NCBI RefSeq assembly: GCF_035285525.1
Contig: NZ_JAYKGW010000070.1
Coordinates: 4,420-36,419 of the forward strand
Length of the DNA: 32,000 bases
Direction: 5' to 3'
From: Okeania sp.
GTDB taxonomy: Bacteria; Cyanobacteriota; Cyanobacteriia; Cyanobacteriales; Microcoleaceae
In this document: positions 3,059-15,772 of the stretch, piece by piece
Layout of the letters: every line of letters starts with the position of its first letter
Numbering within the stretch: position 1 is the first letter of the stretch
Notes under the pieces: generated by a model
What the model was told of the DNA's origin: nothing
The model's database searches: none
Seen by the model: only the letters and a program-made list of their open reading frames with translations
Position numbers and translations under genes: made by a program

Positions 3059-4335
3059 ATGTTTACAGGAGGGATGATGCAGTTAGTGGAACGTACTATC
3101 ATTAACAAAAATCATCCCAATTATAAATCACTTGATGCTCTAGCTTTCTTGTCTAAAAATCTCTACAATATAGCTAACTACATAGTCAGACAAGAGTTTA
3201 TTAATAAAGGAAATTATCTAGATTATAAAAAGGTTCAAAATTTATTACAGTCGGGAGTAGATTATCAAGCAATACCAGCCAAAGTTGCTCAACAGGTTTT
3301 GATTCTTTTAGATAAAAATTGGCAAAGTTTTTTTCAAGCTATAAGAGCTTATAATGAATGTCCGAGTAAGTTTAAAAGTCGTCCTAAATTGCCAAAATAT
3401 AAAGATAAAAAGAAAGGGAGGAATATTTTAGTCTATACAAAACAAGCCATTAGTAAACCTCAATTAGTCAAAAATAAGAAGATATTACTATCAAAAAGTA
3501 AGCTATTTTTTGACAGTAAAATAAATTATGATTCTCTGCAACAAGTGAGAATTGTTCCTAAACTTAAATTACTTTGTGATAGAAGTGGTTTACGAATCCG
3601 TTGAAGTTAAATTAGATTTGTCAGAATATCATGTAGCTTCTGTAGATTTGGGAGTGAATAATTTGGCAACTGTAACATCAAATAAAAAAGGTTTTCAACC
3701 CTTAATTATTAACGGCAGACCAGTCAAATCAATCAATCAATTCTATAATAAGAAAAAGGGTAAACTACAATCAGAATTAAAGGATGCTAAAAGTAGTAAT
3801 CGAATCAAAAGATTATCGACAAAAAGAAATTTAAAGATTGATGATTATCTACATGTATACTAGCAGATATATTATTAATCATCTGATAGAGAACCAGATA
3901 GGAATTTTAGTAATAGGAAATAATCCTAACTGGAAACAAGGTATAAATCTGGACAAAAAAAACAATCAAAACTTTGTTCAAATTCCTTTTTTCAAGTTAA
4001 TTGAACAACTAAAATACAAAGCCTTGCTTAGTAGGAATCAAAGTAATAATTAATGAAGAGAGTTATACCTCAAAAGCTAGTTTTTTAGACTGGGACGATT
4101 TACCAGTTTATCAAAAAGGTGTCAAATATAAATAAGCGTGGTAAACGAGTGAAAAGAGGACTTTATGAAGCTTCAAATGGTGTCAAATACAATGAAATGC
4201 GTCAATTGAAGTTTAAATATATTACGAAAATTAGTCCCAAACGCTTTTAGCAATGGGATAGAGGAGCCAGTGCGTTGGGGGGGTTTCCCGACAGTCACGC
4301 AACTGGCGTGGTGTTGTAGTTCACCCCATTAAGGT
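3059..4335 (+). pseudogene. tnpB: IS200/IS605-family tnpB (OrfB/IS1341-type RNA-guided nuclease), multiply frameshifted, with no tnpA
   Basis: Homology runs through four reading frames: 3059-3604, 3552-3863, 3838-4053 and 4052-4135. Motifs include VDLGVNNLATV (RuvC-I Asp), IGILVIGNNPNWKQ, and NEESYTSKASFLD followed by GKRVKRGLYEASNG. The tail PKRFSNGIE...VVVHPIKV is broken by stops and by a roughly 40-nt hairpin insert at about 4266-4307. Confidence 0.85.
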
Positions 4336-7978: not shown

Positions 7979-8006
7979 AGCTGATAACTGATAACTGATA
8001 ACTGAA
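7979..8006 (+). repeat. CTGATAA heptamer (STRR) array abutting the helicase start codon
   Basis: GCTGATAACTGATAACTGATAACTGAA is followed directly by the ATG at 8007. No Shine-Dalgarno-like purine run lies between them. Confidence 0.9.
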
Positions 8007-11000
8007 ATGGCAATATACCAAACCGAACCATCTAAATTTTCCCAATTACTCAAAAAAGTAAAAAATGGAGACGAACTCAACCTCCAACCAGGAGATTACA
8101 AAGCTCCTTTTACCATTGATAAATCAATTACTATTCGTGGTAGCGGCACCGATACCGTAATTTTTGCTGCCACCGAAACTCCTCTCACCATAACAGTTCC
8201 CGAAGTACGATTGGAAAATCTCACAGTGGAGCGTACAGTTGGTGGCGAACAAGGGGAAGTTGCTATATTTGCCGAACCTAATACTAAACCCATTTTGAGT
8301 CAAGTCAAATTAAATGGGGTTGCGGAAAATGTGGAATGGGAGGGAGCAAGTTGGGATATTCCCACGATGCTCGATTTTGGGGAAGTAGAAATTAACCGAC
8401 AAGTGGAACGAGGATGGGAGTTACAACTGGGTGCGGTTTGTCAGGTTTTGTGTAATCTAAATTGGTTGCAGGTGCGCTCCAGTTATCTTTCACCGGGACG
8501 ACAAAATTTGGATTTGGTGTTGAATACTGCTGATGTTCCTACTGGTACAAATTTATCTGGTTTAATTTCTCTGTTTTCAGAAGGTGGGAGACGAGAGTTG
8601 GAGGTTGCTGCTAAGGTTATTTCCTCAGCTCCGGCAACTCCAGTGGTGGCAGTGGAAACACAAGATTTATCTGCTAAAGTTTTGACTTCTCAAGATTGGG
8701 GTTATCGGTTTATCGGTAGTGCGGTGGATAGGTTGGTTCGGACTCAGTTGGGTGAAAGTGCCATGAAGAAATATCCAGAATTTTCGGATCGTCGCGCGAA
8801 AGCAGAATTATTGATGTCTGAGATATTGGATGAAGATTCTCATTTATATTATGTGCGTCGTCAAGCACCGGGAAAGGAAGAGGGGGAGGAAGTTTGGGAA
8901 CTGACAATGGCTACGGATAGGGAGGATGAATGGGAAAAAACGTTGAAACTTAGGGGAGCAGTTAATATTGATGGAGACAGGGTTTTCAAAATATTATCGG
9001 TGCAGTTTATTTCTCATAAAGCAGAAGCAGATGAGTTTAGTGTTGCTTTGCAAATCCGTTTATTGCCACAACATCAGTTCCGACGAAAGATACCATTGGG
9101 AGCGGTGCGCTCTATCCAAAAAATGCCTTTTTTTGGCGATCGCTTACTAACGGAGGATCAACTTCCTATTTGGACGACTTTTGTGAAAATGGAGCAGCGT
9201 CTCGCAGAAAAACGTCAATTTTGTTTACCTTATTCTAGTCACAACTACGGTAGTGCTAAGAAAAGGATTACTTTTGAAATTGATATTCGGGCGGCAACTA
9301 TTGATGGAACGCCAGAAACTTCTCTGGAAGATATGGAGTTACGGCGACGACTTTTTGAGGCAAAAAATCAAAATATTCAACTTTTTTCCAGTTCTCCAGC
9401 AGGTAGGGATGGTAGAGATGGGGAAAAGTTGGGAGCGATCGCTTCTATTGATTGGGAGAAGAGTCAAGTACGGATCGCGTTGGATAGTGAGATTGTGGAA
9501 AGTATTGTTCGTGGGAGTTATCGTATACCGTCTACAGGATTTTTATTTTTTGTGGATTCTGGAGATATTGCTCAGGTGCAACGGAAACGAAGAGCGTTGG
9601 AAGATTTACAAAATGGTCGTTGTCAGAATCCATATTTGGGGGAATTTTTCTTTGATGCTACTTGTGCGCGAGTTCCAAAAAAGCGAGTGGAACTGCAACC
9701 CCAGAATTTATTGTTACCTGCTGCGAATGCTCATCAACTTGCTGCTGTGGAAAAGGTTTTGGCAGCAAAAGATTTGGCTTTGATTCAGGGTCCTCCTGGT
9801 ACTGGGAAAACTACTGTGATTGCGGAAATTTGTTATCAAGTTGCGTTACGGGGAGGGCGGACTTTGATTGCGTCTCAGGCAAATTTGGCGGTTGATAATG
9901 CTTTGAGCAGGTTGGTTCATAATCCGGTGATTCGTGCTGTACGCAAGGGAAAAGCTGAGAAGGTGCAAGTGGAAGGGGAGCCATTTTTGGAGGAACGGGT
10001 GATTGATACTTGGTTAAAAAATACTGCTAATGATTGTGAAAAAGATTTGGGGGAGCGACTGCAACGGGTGGAAGTTTTACGGAATTTATTGATAGAGTCT
10101 GAGAGATTTAATGGTTATTTCGAGTTGGAGAAAAAATGGGTAAATGAACAGAAGGAGTTGAGCGATCGCCAAATTATTTTGGAGGCAAGTCGGATAGCAT
10201 TGGAGGCTGAATTTTTGCAGTTGGAAACTGATAGGAAGGAGTTAGATTTTTTGGTATTGGGATTAGATAATTTGTTAAATTCTGCACCGAATATTAATTG
10301 GGAAAATGAGGAAGTTAGAATTTTTTTAGCTCGTTTACAACCTTATGCTCAGGAGGAAAGTTCGGTTAAAGATTTAATAGAGAATGTGGGTTTAGGTCGG
10401 AATCTTGCTAAAGATATTGGTTGGGAAATTCCGCAATTAGGAGCTTTTGGTTTAGCAGTTTGGTTACAGGAAAATTTAGTTGTTTTATTGCCAGAATTTC
10501 AGAGTGGTTTAGCTGTGGCAAAAAAAGCTGTTTTGGCAATGTCGGAAACTGAGAAATTATTACAGATTTATCAACAGGTTCATGGTAATTTTGAGCGGTT
10601 GAAAAAAGATATTCAGCAAGGAGAGATAATTTCAGAAAGTTTAGGAGAAAAGCGTCAAGAATTAGAAAGGGAAAAAAGTCAGATAGATTTAGTTGTTGGA
10701 GAAGTAGGTGTCTGGATAAAAAAAATTGGTAAAGAACGGATATTTGAGGAATTGAAAAAATGTTGGGAAACTGGTGAAAGTTTTCAATTAGATTCAATTG
10801 GATTACCAGAAAGTTTAATGAAAGTTGCTAGTAGAGAAAAATTACAACTTTTGCCAAATTATGCTCAACGGATTAATCATTTGCCAGATTGGGAAAGATT
10901 GGAAAAAGCATTAAATGCCGAGTCAAGTCGTGGCTTTAAAAATATCCAAGGAAAAGAATATCGTTTTGATGAATTTTTACAAATTACTCTGAGTCAAGCA

Positions 11001-12968
11001 CCGATAGTTTTGTCAGAAAGAGATTATCAAAACTGGCAAGAGTTTGCTAAATCATTTATAAATTATCCCCAACTTGGTCAACAAGAACGACAAAGTTTAG
11101 TGAGAAAAATTCAACAATTTTTCCATAAAAATAAACAGAAATATAGTTTAGTTTGGCAACCAGAGAATATAACAAAAACTTTCACAGAAGTGATAGATAA
11201 AATTTTCAATAAAATTCTCCATAATTCTCGTGAATTTTTACTTCCTGCTAAACAAGAAAATCTCAAACAAATCCTGAAAAATGAGAAACTATCAGAGGAA
11301 AATATACAATTATTGGCAAACCAGAGACAAAGACTAGAAATAGTCGATAAAAAAGGAAAAGATTCTCGACAAAAACTGGAAGAAAAATATCAAGAGCTTG
11401 TGGCAATTTTAAAAGAAATAGATTCTCAAACAGGAGTTAATCCAGAAATTAGCGATTTAGTCAAACAATATCTTGAATGGCAACCATTGCAGATATTAAA
11501 CGATAAATCAAATTTTGCCGAAAAAGTAAATTATTGGGAAAATAGTTTAAATCAACTTAAAAAAATATCTCCTCAACTACAACCTTTTACCGTTCTGAAA
11601 GAAATCAAAAATATTCTCCAAGAAAGACTAAACACCATCCAAGAAAAAGCCGATAAATTGCCGGAAAAAATCGAATCTTGCCAAACAAAAATTAATCAAA
11701 TTAAAACGGAATTAGAACAAACATTACCAACCAACTTAATTCAAGAAAGAAACTGGTGGAAATTAGCATGGTCAAAAATTCCAGAAAATCTCAAACCCGC
11801 CGTTGAGGAAACAGAATTATTTGCCATCGAACTATTACATAAAATTAAACTGCAACAGAAAAATTGGCAACAAGAATTAGAAACAGAAGAAACCCTCCTA
11901 AATCAACACCAAAAATTTATTCAAGACTGGATAAAAAAACTCAAACAACCTTCAGAAAAAGATAGTAACGAGCTGAGAAAAATTTACCTTGATAATGCCA
12001 ACGTTATTGGTATTACCTGCGTCCAAGCTGCCAGTCGAAACTTTGCCGAAGAATTTAATAGTTTCGACGTCGTAATAATAGATGAAGTTAGTAAATGTAC
12101 TCCTCCAGAAATATTAATTCCGGCATTAAAAGGCAAAAAATTAGTATTAGTAGGAGACCATCGTCAATTACCACCAATGCTTAACGATAATACCATTGAA
12201 GAAATTGCTGAAGAGATGAAAATTTCCAAAGAAGAATTAGACTTTTTAGAAGAATCACTCTTTAAAACTCACTTCGAGACAGCCAAAGAAGAAATCAAAC
12301 AAATGTTAACTATTCAATATAGAATGCACCCCAATATTATGGGAGCAATTAATCAATTTTATCAACATCGTTTAGAATGCGGTCTTATCAGACCAGACAA
12401 AAAACGTTCCCATAATTTAGAAGGTAAAATTATTCAAGAAAATCAACATCTTATCTGGGTAAAAATGCCACAGTCAGAAAACTTTATGGAACAAAAAGAA
12501 GGAACATCACCTTTTAACAAAAAAGAAGTTGATGCCATTGAAAAAATATGTGGAGAAATGGAGAAATCTTGGTCTGTGAAAGTTGCTGAGGGTTTGCCAA
12601 GAAAAGAATTAGGAATTATTACATTTTATAATGCTCAGTTGCGATTAATAGAGTCGAGAATTAATCCTGAAAATTTTCCATCCTTACATATTAGAACTGG
12701 AACAGTTGATAGATTTCAAGGAATGGAAAGACAGGTAATTATTGTTAGTATGGTCAGAAATAATGACTTAGGAAAAGTAGGATTTGCCAAGAAACCAGAA
12801 CGGGTAAATGTTGCTTTTTCTCGCGCTCAAGAATTGTTAATTATTGTGGGATGTCATAAATTATTTACACAACATTATGGAACTGTAGGAAATATGTATT
12901 CAGAAGTTTCTGATGTGGTGCGCAGTCAAGGGGGATTGATAGAAATTTCAGATATTTTAATGACCTAA
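8007..12968 (+). CDS. 1653-aa multidomain SF1 (Upf1/DNA2-like, AAA_11/AAA_12-type) helicase with a beta-helix-like and Ig-like N-terminus and a very long coiled-coil-like insertion
   Basis: Walker A is LIQGPPGTGKTT (aa 595-602, nt 9789-9812) and motif Ia is LIASQANLAVDNAL. About 700 K/E/Q/L-rich residues follow. Motif II is VVIIDEVSK (Asp-Glu at aa 1359-1360, nt 12081-12086) and motif III is LVGDHRQLPPM. Further motifs are QYRMHPNI, GIITFYNAQ, TVDRFQGMERQVIIVS and VNVAFSRAQELLIIVG. N-terminal aa 1-105 resemble a short right-handed beta-helix (ITIRGSG..., LENLTVER). Aa about 115-205 resemble an Ig-like sandwich (LDFGEVEINRQV...LDLVLNT...). Confidence 0.9.
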   Translation: MAIYQTEPSKFSQLLKKVKNGDELNLQPGDYKAPFTIDKSITIRGSGTDTVIFAATETPLTITVPEVRLENLTVERTVGGEQGEVAIFAEPNTKPILSQVKLNGVAENVEWEGASWDIPTMLDFGEVEINRQVERGWELQLGAVCQVLCNLNWLQVRSSYLSPGRQNLDLVLNTADVPTGTNLSGLISLFSEGGRRELEVAAKVISSAPATPVVAVETQDLSAKVLTSQDWGYRFIGSAVDRLVRTQLGESAMKKYPEFSDRRAKAELLMSEILDEDSHLYYVRRQAPGKEEGEEVWELTMATDREDEWEKTLKLRGAVNIDGDRVFKILSVQFISHKAEADEFSVALQIRLLPQHQFRRKIPLGAVRSIQKMPFFGDRLLTEDQLPIWTTFVKMEQRLAEKRQFCLPYSSHNYGSAKKRITFEIDIRAATIDGTPETSLEDMELRRRLFEAKNQNIQLFSSSPAGRDGRDGEKLGAIASIDWEKSQVRIALDSEIVESIVRGSYRIPSTGFLFFVDSGDIAQVQRKRRALEDLQNGRCQNPYLGEFFFDATCARVPKKRVELQPQNLLLPAANAHQLAAVEKVLAAKDLALIQGPPGTGKTTVIAEICYQVALRGGRTLIASQANLAVDNALSRLVHNPVIRAVRKGKAEKVQVEGEPFLEERVIDTWLKNTANDCEKDLGERLQRVEVLRNLLIESERFNGYFELEKKWVNEQKELSDRQIILEASRIALEAEFLQLETDRKELDFLVLGLDNLLNSAPNINWENEEVRIFLARLQPYAQEESSVKDLIENVGLGRNLAKDIGWEIPQLGAFGLAVWLQENLVVLLPEFQSGLAVAKKAVLAMSETEKLLQIYQQVHGNFERLKKDIQQGEIISESLGEKRQELEREKSQIDLVVGEVGVWIKKIGKERIFEELKKCWETGESFQLDSIGLPESLMKVASREKLQLLPNYAQRINHLPDWERLEKALNAESSRGFKNIQGKEYRFDEFLQITLSQAPIVLSERDYQNWQEFAKSFINYPQLGQQERQSLVRKIQQFFHKNKQKYSLVWQPENITKTFTEVIDKIFNKILHNSREFLLPAKQENLKQILKNEKLSEENIQLLANQRQRLEIVDKKGKDSRQKLEEKYQELVAILKEIDSQTGVNPEISDLVKQYLEWQPLQILNDKSNFAEKVNYWENSLNQLKKISPQLQPFTVLKEIKNILQERLNTIQEKADKLPEKIESCQTKINQIKTELEQTLPTNLIQERNWWKLAWSKIPENLKPAVEETELFAIELLHKIKLQQKNWQQELETEETLLNQHQKFIQDWIKKLKQPSEKDSNELRKIYLDNANVIGITCVQAASRNFAEEFNSFDVVIIDEVSKCTPPEILIPALKGKKLVLVGDHRQLPPMLNDNTIEEIAEEMKISKEELDFLEESLFKTHFETAKEEIKQMLTIQYRMHPNIMGAINQFYQHRLECGLIRPDKKRSHNLEGKIIQENQHLIWVKMPQSENFMEQKEGTSPFNKKEVDAIEKICGEMEKSWSVKVAEGLPRKELGIITFYNAQLRLIESRINPENFPSLHIRTGTVDRFQGMERQVIIVSMVRNNDLGKVGFAKKPERVNVAFSRAQELLIIVGCHKLFTQHYGTVGNMYSEVSDVVRSQGGLIEISDILMT

Positions 12969-12976
12969 TTTGAGTA

Positions 12977-13160
12977 TTAGGGCGGAGTTTATATAAATCT
13001 TAGAGTCAGTATTAAAATCCTAATTAAAAAGTTTTCATTAGGGCGGGTTTATATAAATCTTAGAGTCAGTATTAAAATCCTAATTAAAAAGTTTTCATTA
13101 GGGCGGGTTTATATAAATCTTAGAGTCAGTATTAAAATCCTAATTAAAACCCGCCCCTAC
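12977..13160. repeat. three tandem units (61, 60 and 63 nt) of a GGGCGGGTTT...AAACCCGCCCC hairpin element
   Basis: TTAGGGCGG(A)GTTTATATAAATCTTAGAGTCAGTATTAAAATCCTAATTAAAA occurs three times, starting 9 nt after the helicase stop. Units 1 and 2 end in AGTTTTCA. Only unit 3 ends in the closing arm CCCGCCCCTAC. Confidence 0.9.
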
Positions 13161-13182
13161 TATTACAGTAATATCAAATCCA

Positions 13183-13470
13183 CTTAATTTAGTAGAAAAA
13201 AATCTTCGATTTTCAACCATTACCAAATCTCTCCACACCAACCACACTTTTCTGAACAAAACTTACCCAAAGATACTATATATAAAGTCAAAAAACTGTT
13301 GCACAATAATTTTTGAAACTATATCTAAACTCTAGTGCATAAGTCCTGACTATTTAAGATCACATCCTCTTAATTTAGTAGAAAAAAATCTTCGATTTTC
13401 AACCATTACCAAATCTCTCCACACCAACCACACTTTTCTGAACAGAACTTACACAAAGATACTATACTAT
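13183..13470. repeat. about 1.5 copies of a 186-bp tandem duplication (about 100-bp shared block at 13183-13283 and 13369-13470) containing members of the ACTTAC(C/A)CAAAGATACTATA MITE family
   Basis: CTTAATTTAGTAGAAAAAAATCTTCGATTTTCAACCATTACCAAATCTCTCCACACCAACCACACTTTTCTGAACA(A/G)AACTTAC occurs twice, 186 nt apart. A full MITE copy at 13260-13349 aligns with 7821-7914. Confidence 0.8.
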
Positions 13471-13678: not shown

Positions 13679-15772
13679 TTATTTAGACTTAGCTTCCTGA
13701 CGTTCCTTAGCTTCCTTAATCACCACTTCTGCCACATTATTAGGACAAGGTGCATAATGAGAAAACTCCATAGAAAACTGACCCCGACCAGAAGTCATAG
13801 TCCGCAAATCCCCAATATAACCAAACATCTCACTTAATGGCACATCCGCCTTAATACGACTACCAGTTGCTGTCGAATCTTGAGACTTAATCATACCCCG
13901 ACGACGATTAAGATCTCCAATCACATCACCAACATGATCGTCAGGAGTAAACACATCAACCTTCATTATCGGTTCCAATAACTGAGGAGAAGCTTTAGAA
14001 AAAGACTGACGATAAGCAGCTTTCGCAGCAATCTCAAAAGCGATCGCTGAGGAGTCAACCGGGTGGAAAGCGCCATCCGTTAATGTGAACTTCATATCCA
14101 CACAAGGATAACCAGCTAACATACCCTTGGCAAAACTACTCTCAAAACCTTTTTGTACAGCAGGCCAAAATTCTCTGGGCACATTTCCACCAGTCACCTT
14201 TGACTCGAACTGGAAACCTTCACCAGTTTCAGCAGGTTCCATCACATAATCAATCTTAGCAAATTGACCAGAACCGCCAGACTGCTTCTTATGAGTATAG
14301 CTATCTTCAAGACGCTTAGTAATAGATTCACGATAAGCTACCTGTGGTTTACCAACTTCCACATCAACTCCATAAGTCCGTTTCAGAATATCAACCTTAA
14401 TATCCAAATGTAATTCACCCATACCCTTAATGATGGTTTCATTACTTTCAGCATCTGTTTCAACTCGGAAAGATGGGTCTTCCTGAACCATTTTACTCAA
14501 TGCCAAGCCCAATTTTTCTACAGAACCTTTATCCTTAGCTGCCACAGCAATAGAAATTACTGGGTCAGGGAACACCATCGGTTCCAAAGTAGCAGGTTCT
14601 TTGGGGTCACAGAGAGTATGGCCAGTTTGTACATTCTTCATTCCCACAATAGCAACAATATCCCCTGCTTGAGCAGATTCAATTTCTTCGCGGGAGTTGG
14701 CGTGCATTTCTACCAAACGTCCAACTCTCTCAGTCTTACCTGTAAAAGTATTAAGAACGGTGTCGCCTTTAGACAAAGTACCAGAATAGATACGGGTAAA
14801 AGTCAAAGCACCATATTTGTCATCCATAATCTTAAAGGCCAAAGCTCGCAGTGGCTTTTCTGGATCGACATAGGCTACTTTACCAGTCTCGTTACCTTCG
14901 AGGTCAATTTCTGGTTGTGGCTTAACTTCTGTAGGATTAGGTAGATAATCAACTACTGCATCAAGTACCAACTGTACGCCCTTATTTTTGAAAGATGAAC
15001 CACAGTAGGTGGGGAAGAAAGCTAAGTCCCTAGTACCCTTACGAATACAACGTTTGAGAGTATCAATATCTGGCTCTTCTCCTTCCAAATATTGTTCCAT
15101 TACGTCGTCGTCTTGCTCTACAGCAGTTTCAATTAACATTTCCCGATATTTCTCAACATCATCAACCATATTCTCTGGAACATCTTTAATCTCATATTTG
15201 GTTGGGTCTCCAGAATCATCCCAAATCCATGCTTTGCGGGTTAGCAAATCCACAACTCCCACAAAATCATTTTCAATACCAATTGGTAATACCATTACTA
15301 ATGGTTTGGCCGCGAGTACATCTTCTACCTGCTTGACAACTCTGTAGAAATCTGCTCCTGTGCGGTCTAACTTATTTACATAGATAATTCGAGCAACTTT
15401 AGAATCATTAGCATAACGCCAGTTAGTTTCAGATTGGGGTTCTACACCACCAGAACCACAAAATACACCTACACCACCATCGAGAACCTTGAGGGAACGA
15501 TATACTTCGATGGTAAAGTCAACGTGGCCAGGGGTGTCAATAATATTTAATTGATGGTTATTCCAGAAGCAACTTGTGGCAGCGGACTGAATCGTAATAC
15601 CACGTTCTTGCTCCTGTTCCATAAAGTCTGTTGTCGCGGCACCTTCGTGGACCTCACCGATTTTATGAATTTTTCCGGTTAGTTTCAAAATTCTTTCTGT
15701 TGTGGTGGTTTTGCCCGCATCAACGTGGGCGAAGATGCCAAAATTGCGATAACGAGTGAGGTCTTTTGCCAT
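13679..15772 (-). CDS. fusA: translation elongation factor G family GTPase (paralogue outside an rpsL-rpsG-fusA-tuf context)
   Basis: [21 protein letters not shown] is the G1 motif, DTPGHVDF is G3, NKLDR is G4. EF-G domains II-V are present at full length (697 aa). Confidence 0.93.

Follow-up and report, generated by a model that had tools for sequence, protein, structure and literature searches.

Of the known anti-phage systems, Mokosh is one of the more common. In E. coli, defence by its type I form needs both the ATPase and the PLD sites, and MkoA, its helicase, has been described with a Ser/Thr kinase domain (Millman et al. 2022). A related architecture is known from CoCoNuT systems, in which CnuH, a UPF1-like superfamily 1 (SF1) helicase, carries a 'large helical insertion' with coiled coils past its Walker A motif; the downstream CnuE is an elongated winged helix–turn–helix (wHTH) protein fused to variable effectors, PLD among them, and its wHTH part has been modelled on, and proposed to dock on, the helical insertion of CnuH (Bell et al., eLife 2024, PMC11090510). 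This kind of system has thus been published before, and so has the idea of an effector adaptor bound by a helical insertion. Here we analyse a helicase gene at positions 8007..12968 of a 32-kb stretch of DNA from Okeania sp. (contig NZ_JAYKGW010000070.1; the whole stretch is called the window below). Its product is a Upf1-like SF1B helicase related to MkoA, whose first RecA-like domain is split by a long helical insert, predicted to fold as a hairpin, and whose relatives are usually accompanied by a dedicated MkoB-like partner. We found no description in the literature that we consulted of this helicase clade, its hairpin or the RecG-like module at the hairpin tip.

The helicase, its insert and its tip

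The product of the gene matches, at 100% identity, an NCBI protein (P0001) that is annotated simply as 'AAA domain-containing protein [Okeania sp.]'. The SF1B motifs I, Ia, II, III, IV, V and VI are all intact and in order over two RecA-like domains: Walker A GPPGTGKT (aa 595-602), motif Ia ASQANLAVDNAL (aa 622-633), motif II within IIDEVSK (aa 1357-1363, with DE at aa 1359-1360), motif III GDHRQLPP (aa 1383-1390), QYRMHPNI (aa 1437-1444), TVDRFQGMERQ (aa 1566-1576) and VAFSRAQ (aa 1602-1608). An earlier sequence-only reading had proposed a Upf1/DNA2-like SF1B helicase and assigned the motifs that it quoted to these same residues, and the database comparisons agree with it. Pfam AAA_11 matches with E 2.2e-42, broken into two stretches, and AAA_12 with E 6.6e-48 at aa 1414-1617; human Upf1 aligns over aa 570-647 and aa 1325-1633 (E 3.9e-36). 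The best matches in the PDB, by sequence and by fold, are Upf1, IGHMBP2, Senataxin and Dna2, with Foldseek probabilities of 1.00 for SETX, IGHMBP2 and Upf1. Among defence families, two PADLOC MkoA profiles match strongly, each in two blocks that flank the insert: PDLC03920 (E 2.6e-115) aligns aa 576-676 with profile positions 619-721 and aa 1321-1637 with positions 760-1096, and PDLC03921 (E 2.1e-102) aligns aa 573-690 with positions 1027-1152 and aa 1204-1623 with positions 1170-1573.

Walker A and motif II are separated by 764 aa, compared with 120-310 aa in the other Upf1-like proteins that we retrieved, and some 677 residues (L 14, E 13, K 10 and Q 9%) occupy the site at which Upf1 has a 1C element of about 60 residues. 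The insertion site in RecA1 is the position of the 1C 'prong'. An AlphaFold2 (AF2) model of aa 560-1653, built from a 26-sequence alignment, contains near-continuous helices over aa 660-1331 at a pLDDT (predicted local distance difference test) score of 80-90, with a mixed region at aa 923-1054. In a family-averaged periodogram, six of the seven long helices have hydrophobicity peaks at 3.42-3.60 residues that rise above those of shuffled sequences, and the heptad a and d positions are 47-86% hydrophobic versus 14-26% at the other positions. The split of RecA1 by a long coiled-coil-like insert, as read from the sequence alone, is borne out by spacing, model and periodicity. Large inserts at the 1C site are not unprecedented, as they also occur in CnuH and in the PADLOC profiles of MkoC, Hhe and PDC-S37. 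Scanned alone against the PADLOC profiles, the insert matched no defence family.

Three independent features lead us to infer that the insert folds as an antiparallel coiled-coil hairpin: the equal lengths of its two arms, the symmetry of natural insertions and deletions, and Foldseek matches to the arms of SMC proteins. Insert length is invariant in most homologues, down to 45% identity. One Microcoleus subfamily lacks aa 856-880 and 891-1115, with the centre of the deletion at about aa 985, and another homologue lacks aa 837-1180, such that the deletions are symmetric about aa ~985-1008; furthermore, a gain of 7 residues at aa 775 goes together with a gain of 4-5 residues at aa 1236. The Foldseek matches comprise MukB, Smc5/6, the cohesin elbow, JetC and condensin; these alignments span some 800-1200 columns and have E values of 1e-6 to 1e-3, although their template modelling (TM) scores are only ~0.08. 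If extended, each arm would reach about 30-37 nm, at ~0.15 nm per residue over its ~246 helical residues. Long and short hairpins also occur at one syntenic locus, that of two Microcoleus chromosomes: a 1423-aa allele with a short, tipless hairpin in one (L086) and a 1703-aa allele with a long hairpin in the other (L087). Each is followed by a 641-aa PLD partner, and in L087 HicAB and Uma2 genes are inserted upstream of the helicase.

At the apex of the insert lies an unannotated domain of about 88 aa that our analysis reveals to be common to the helicase tip and cyanobacterial RecG. Positions 5-141 of the NCBIfam RecG model NF008170 match aa 956-1091 (E 3.6e-18). An exhaustive HMMER (phmmer) search with aa 939-1100 retrieved 90 proteins, most of them matched within their first ~90 residues, and the matches that we tested are cyanobacterial RecG proteins or fragments, except for one Ser/Thr kinase-WD40 protein (carriers noted: P0077, P0090, P0142, P0165 and P0143); a word-indexed search with the apex alone gave no match. 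In RecG, the module forms the extreme N terminus, ahead of the wedge domain that begins at about residue 130. The aligned modules share 32-43% identity and the consensus PDWxRLQKALxVEAExGFxNLxGKQYRFSEFL; they have no Pfam family and no significant match among solved structures. In a sister subfamily, represented by P0028 (aa 892-968) and P0034 (aa 901-976), the tip instead matches PF23007 (STICHEL DnaA_N-like; E 9.3e-13), and the short-hairpin subfamily has no tip domain. Homology between the RecG-N-like and DnaA_N-like modules was considered and rejected, as no similarity between them is detectable. Because the tip is RecG-N-like, DnaA_N-like or absent according to subfamily, it is an exchangeable cassette. 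The apex of the Okeania protein holds a single Cys and hence no CxxC.

The region ahead of the motor was modelled separately (AF2 of aa 1-600, mean pLDDT 77.5), and the beta-helix and Ig-like N terminus of the sequence-only reading is recovered there. Its first module has an NCBIfam NosD-family match at aa 13-96, under the cutoff of the model (E 1e-8), and is optional in the family, as matches in Nostoc and Microcoleus homologues, which lack the first ~200 residues, begin at about aa 185-228. For the following beta-sandwich, Foldseek returned a HYDIN PapD-like domain (target-relative TM 0.60) and Ig domains. Residues 383-557 weakly match positions 862-1005 of an MkoA profile in PADLOC, just ahead of its core, and aa 382-535 in the model are probably a Upf1-type stalk and 1B barrel.

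Full-length homologues with 42-85% identity occur in many cyanobacteria. Among species-representative genomes we counted 537 relatives, of which the 80 best are without exception full length and nearly all cyanobacterial. The gene is under purifying selection and is being maintained, as judged from pairwise ratios of non-synonymous to synonymous substitution rates (dN/dS) of 0.22-0.26 against four relatives; by region, the insert has ratios of 0.30-0.42 and the core has ratios of 0.13-0.19. GC content falls along the gene from ~43% in the N-terminal third to ~30-35% in the part that encodes the coiled coil, and this fall, inside positions 8001-13000, agrees with the K/E/N/Q/I-rich composition of that part.

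The partner gene and its genomic settings

In Trichodesmium and Laspinema, the gene after the helicase encodes a protein of 614-631 aa with an HxK(x)4D(x)6GSxN motif. The two proteins are 41.5% identical to each other and match PADLOC MkoB over its N-terminal and PLD domains (E 8.4e-36 and 1.4e-26). Across relatives, the downstream partner is typically 610-640 aa long and its gene typically overlaps the helicase stop codon by 16 nt. We surveyed 85 related loci from species-representative genomes, together with the window, over up to 10 kb per locus. Among the 75 informative loci, 31 carry a full partner with PLD, another 29 carry an adaptor-only form (the N-terminal domain, ~270-300 aa) and 15 lack a partner in the sequence covered. 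The only sign of a wHTH in the partner is a weak PADLOC match to WH_III-A (E 0.0014), and the protein has no significant relative among solved PDB structures.

Another variant is found in Nostoc sp. C052, whose conjugative plasmid pC052_C has a BREX-1 operon with three additional genes in the pglX/pglZ interval (L094 7016-13764). The first encodes a 1246-aa member of the helicase family; the second overlaps it and encodes an MkoB-like adaptor (E 2e-36) fused to DarT (Pfam E 9.2e-16), which replaces PLD; and the third encodes an ADP-ribosylglycohydrolase. The predicted effector of the partner is swappable: it is PLD in the full partners and DarT once, and it is often missing. On the plasmid pCHL69-1 of Cyanobacterium sp. 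HL-69, the helicase-partner pair stands between a type I restriction subunit gene (hsdR) and several toxin-antitoxin genes. Within the family we find tandem paralogues, decayed C-terminal remnants, plasmid copies and a neighbourhood that varies between genera, which is not the picture of a single-copy housekeeping gene in a fixed context. At tandem loci, second helicase copies or C-terminal remnants stand directly upstream of the MkoB-like gene and the complete first copy is partnerless (tandem copies or remnants were noted at L042, L048, L056, L060, L064, L071, L073, L078, L026 and L011). We also considered, and rejected, that Nostoc helicases are split by an inserted element; the matches several kilobases beyond the main gene, ahead of the MkoB-like gene, are tandem second copies or C-terminal remnants.

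No MkoB-like sequence was found anywhere in the 32-kb window. An intact MkoB-like protein of Okeania sp. (P0184, with its HKD motif at aa 420) is nevertheless present in sequencing run SRR19514071, which also contains the exact window helicase, but on a different NCBI contig (99 kb versus 36 kb), and in two related genomes the helicase and the MkoB-like gene are likewise on separate contigs. The presence of an intact MkoB-like gene in the same run suggests that the pair works in trans in Okeania. The sequence-only reading had seen no nuclease here, which holds for the open reading frame (ORF) and for the window but not for the family, given the PLD and adaptor-only partners and P0184. Likewise, its comparison of the split with SMC/Rad50 heads is consistent, as to topology, with the symmetry of arms and indels and with the Foldseek matches, whereas the mechanically distinct, nuclease-free device that it envisaged gives way to a Mokosh type I-like pair, because the family has a dedicated MkoB-like partner.

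Core genes border the accessory stretch of low GC content to which the helicase gene belongs. On the upstream side of the gene we find an IS605 OrfB fragment, an ORF that fuses DarT to a macro domain, a fragment of a nucleotidyltransferase and a Uma2 gene (Table 1), so that the accessory, defence-flavoured setting described from sequence alone was recognized correctly; the IS605 and nucleotidyltransferase fragments are debris typical of such a region. The macro domain of the fusion matches PADLOC DarG (E 4.1e-50), so that a single polypeptide, with DarT ahead of macro, would combine the toxin and antidote activities of DarTG. The arrangement of DarT-macro, Uma2 and helicase is kept in L009, with 91% protein identity of the DarT-macro ORF, and L007 has Uma2 without DarT-macro. 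Given the DarT effector in one relative's partner, the proximity of DarT-macro to the helicase may or may not be coincidence. Uma2 is not a conserved partner: of about 89 loci, only 5, from three lineages, have it directly upstream (the window, L007, L009, L026 and L088), and we reject it as a functional partner as a general rule. An association with an EF-G paralogue was also set aside; only the window and L086, two distant loci, have such a gene near the helicase, with 29% mutual identity, and its presence is probably chance.

Similarity to related loci stops at the helicase stop codon, the point at which relatives carry or approach the MkoB-like gene. The spacer beyond it contains a 60-nt tandem unit in 2.9 copies (12976-13149, 99% match) and a 112-nt direct repeat at 13169-13280 and 13355-13466, 186 nt apart. 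An Rfam scan of the window, repeats included, gave no match.

Table 1. Features of the helicase and of the surrounding window
Feature	Helicase residues	Window position	Strand	Basis
IS605 OrfB fragment		3552-3863	+	Pfam, E 1e-14
DarT-macro fusion ORF, 403 aa		4470-5681	-	Pfam DarT at aa 11-205, E 1.1e-35; macro at aa 236-363
MNT-type nucleotidyltransferase-like fragment, 63 aa		6239-6430	-	GSVARGEE..SDIDFL read by eye
Helicase ORF, 1653 aa		8007..12968	+	One 1653-codon frame, ATG start
Short beta-helix-like module	1-112	8007..8342	+	AF2 strands, pLDDT 80-90; NosD match
Ig/PapD-like beta-sandwich	121-205	8367..8621	+	AF2, pLDDT about 80-90; Foldseek
Alpha/beta region, no recognized family	229-381	8691..9149	+	AF2 secondary structure; no Pfam match
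Two long helices around six strands	382-535	9150..9611	+	AF2 secondary structure
RecA1, N-terminal part (Walker A, motif Ia)	570-659	9714..9983	+	Upf1 alignment; PDLC03920 positions 619-721
Predicted ascending arm	660-922	9984..10772	+	AF2, ~246 helical residues, breaks near aa 760-812
Predicted hairpin apex	923-1054	10773..11168	+	AF2 short helices and strands; natural deletions centred there
RecG-N-like module, ~88 aa	958-1045	10878..11141	+	NCBIfam, HMMER, alignment
Predicted descending arm	1055-1331	11169..11999	+	AF2, ~246 helical residues; periodicity
RecA1, C-terminal part (motifs II and III)	1332-1410	12000..12236	+	Upf1 alignment, PADLOC, motifs
RecA2 (motifs IV-VI)	1411-1653	12237..12965	+	Pfam AAA_12, Upf1 alignment, motifs
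Repeat-rich spacer past the stop codon		12976..13466		Tandem and direct repeats
EF-G paralogue		13679-15772	-	Window; second case L086 4227-6278

A probable defence pair and its alternatives

The most economical reading is that of a nuclease-NTPase system of the type I Mokosh or CnuH-CnuE kind, in a variant particular to cyanobacteria. Its elements are those documented above: the identity of the helicase, the insert, the tip module, the partner family, the swapping of effectors and the defence-island contexts. The predicted role, defence against phages or other mobile DNA, is likely from the company that these genes keep and the profiles that they match. The reading as a whole, in which an MkoA-type helicase with a hairpin and an adaptor-effector partner, encoded in trans, serves in defence, is one that we favour with moderate confidence.

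On how such a pair might work, the effector gives the first clue. DarT acts on thymidines in single-stranded DNA (ssDNA), and single-HKD PLD nucleases act on nucleic acids as dimers. The helicase would probably move 5'->3' on single-stranded nucleic acid, most likely ssDNA in view of an effector that is either a PLD nuclease with a single HKD or DarT, an ssDNA ADP-ribosyltransferase. It probably licenses or delivers the effector. The exchangeable tip probably recruits the complex to a DNA structure or to a replication or repair factor. The coiled coil is probably a docking and regulatory platform for the adaptor domain of the partner, an idea in line with the modelling of the CnuE wHTH on the CnuH helical insertion by Bell et al.

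Several points weigh against this reading. Unlinked genes, as in the Okeania clade, are unusual for a defence operon and fit a cellular role equally well, and the common genomic origin of the helicase and P0184 rests on a shared run and species label. The effector is lost in 29 of the 75 informative loci and the partner is missing nearby in 15. Two Microcoleus genomes hold the gene at one shared chromosomal locus, which suggests vertical inheritance, and the tip modules look like parts of replication and repair proteins, RecG here and a DnaA_N-like domain in the sister subfamily. On the structural side, AF2 gave poor halves of RecA1 (pLDDT <50), and we infer both the antiparallel pairing of the arms and the docking of the partner on the coiled coil. 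Type I Mokosh itself has resisted purification.

The strongest alternative is a cellular helicase for genome maintenance or nucleic-acid quality control, found mainly in filamentous cyanobacteria, with a tip that targets replication or repair intermediates and a PLD that is an accessory nuclease, often dropped. Effector loss, absent partners, the syntenic Microcoleus locus and the partner unlinked in three Okeania-clade genomes are all consistent with it, as are tips in common with RecG and a DnaA_N-like domain, purifying selection, and the number of relatives, the best of which are full length and almost all cyanobacterial. What speaks against such a role is the instability of the family, with its variable copy number, tandem paralogues and decayed remnants, varying N termini and tip domains, and neighbourhoods that differ by genus. 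Moreover, copies lie on conjugative or mobilizable plasmids, in a BREX operon and beside restriction-modification and toxin-antitoxin genes, the effector has been exchanged for the toxin domain DarT, and the best profile matches are to the defence proteins MkoA and MkoB. We regard this cellular role as unlikely.

We give considerably less credence to the possibility that the Okeania gene is the functionless remnant of a Mokosh-like operon, orphaned by a rearrangement that removed the nuclease gene, with a helicase ORF that has yet to decay. The lack of an MkoB-like sequence in 32 kb, the end of similarity at the stop codon beside the repeats and the remnants of such helicases at Nostoc loci would all fit. 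Against it, the ORF is fully intact with all motifs conserved, and the low dN/dS includes comparisons with two relatives in the same unlinked arrangement. No fewer than three species share the unlinked state while retaining a partner with intact HKD at another site, and this state would for that reason be old and tolerated.

About as improbable is an SMC/Rad50-like machine for DNA bridging or loop handling, in which two helicase heads dimerize through their hairpin tips and need no nuclease: Walker A and Walker B do flank a long, predicted antiparallel coiled coil, Foldseek does return MukB, Smc5/6, cohesin and JetC, and some loci do lack an effector, but the core is that of an SF1 helicase (Upf1, Dna2) with no ABC head and no signature motif, the tip is a RecG-N-like module with no hinge or CxxC zinc hook, one subfamily deletes the tip yet keeps its PLD partner, and TM scores of ~0.08 show only a generic coiled-coil likeness.

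Within the favoured reading of a defence pair, a more specific proposal can be made, which we put forward as speculative and rather doubtful. The hairpin may be a 'reach' arm that carries exchangeable targeting cassettes taken from replication and repair proteins and recruits the motor to foreign or stalled replication intermediates, where the adaptor-bound PLD or DarT would then act on exposed ssDNA, even when encoded at a separate locus. If true, this would be a sensing architecture new among nuclease-NTPase defence systems, and the uncharacterised N-terminal domain of RecG in cyanobacteria would gain its first assigned function.

The clade offers natural structure-function variants of a common type of defence system, with long, short and tip-swapped hairpins and with PLD, DarT or no effector, and these variants point to the role of the insertion site and suggest an ssDNA substrate. 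The clade also indicates that a defence-type pair can survive with its components at separate loci, and annotation pipelines based on adjacency would miss such pairs. The hosts, among them Okeania, Trichodesmium, Nostoc and Microcoleus, are ecologically important bloom-forming, nitrogen-fixing and toxin-producing cyanobacteria whose phage defences have been little studied.

Comparison with known systems

SMC, MukB and Rad50 also have a nucleotide-binding domain whose two parts are separated by a long, tip-bearing antiparallel coiled coil, as predicted here, but the Okeania protein has the fold and motifs of an SF1 helicase in place of an ABC head and lacks the signature motif, hinge and zinc hook; the likeness is one of analogy, not homology. 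With Upf1, IGHMBP2, Senataxin and Dna2, it shares RecA1 and RecA2 with all motifs and an insertion at the 1C 'prong' site. It differs from them in the size of that insertion, ~650-680 aa against ~60 aa, and has no CH, R3H or nuclease domains.

Among defence proteins, Nhi matches in PADLOC at the level of the P-loop (E 0.0011) and differs in its nuclease, as the Okeania ORF contains no nuclease domain. MkoC (type II Mokosh), Hhe and PDC-S37 have Upf1-like cores and, in their PADLOC profiles, long stretches between motif Ia and motif II (~340, ~900 and ~580 positions, respectively). They differ in that a nuclease is fused into the same polypeptide, and the matches of the Okeania helicase to MkoC (E 7.8e-27) and Hhe (E 2.6e-5) are weak and limited to the core, with the insert alone unmatched.

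In architecture there is a likeness to type II and III CoCoNuT. Both have a UPF1-like helicase with a large helical insertion past Walker A, judging by the published description of CnuH, and in relatives of the Okeania gene the downstream adaptor-effector protein may correspond to CnuE. Unlike the CoCoNuT helicases, the Okeania protein has no SmpB-like or RNase-toxin-like N-terminal domains, and neither the ORFs of the window nor the annotated surroundings of homologous genes include a McrB/McrC-like CnuB or CnuC.

The best profile matches are to type I Mokosh, from which the Okeania system differs in three respects. First, the canonical MkoA profiles have ~20-40 positions where the Okeania helicase has ~520-610 residues, and plasmid-borne Ser/Thr kinase (STK)-type MkoA proteins, cyanobacterial ones included, span the equivalent of aa 506-1641 with ~635 aa; on the basis of these spans and of a fragment scan of the PADLOC profiles, we rejected the insert as part of canonical MkoA. 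Second, the beta-helix and Ig-like N terminus replaces the Ser/Thr kinase domain, and the Okeania helicase gave no Pkinase match at E <= 0.1. Third, the partner is absent from the window, adaptor-only in many relatives and once fused to DarT. What the two have in common is a COG1112/Upf1-like SF1B core that matches the MkoA profile and, in relatives, a downstream partner that matches MkoB over its N-terminal and PLD domains.

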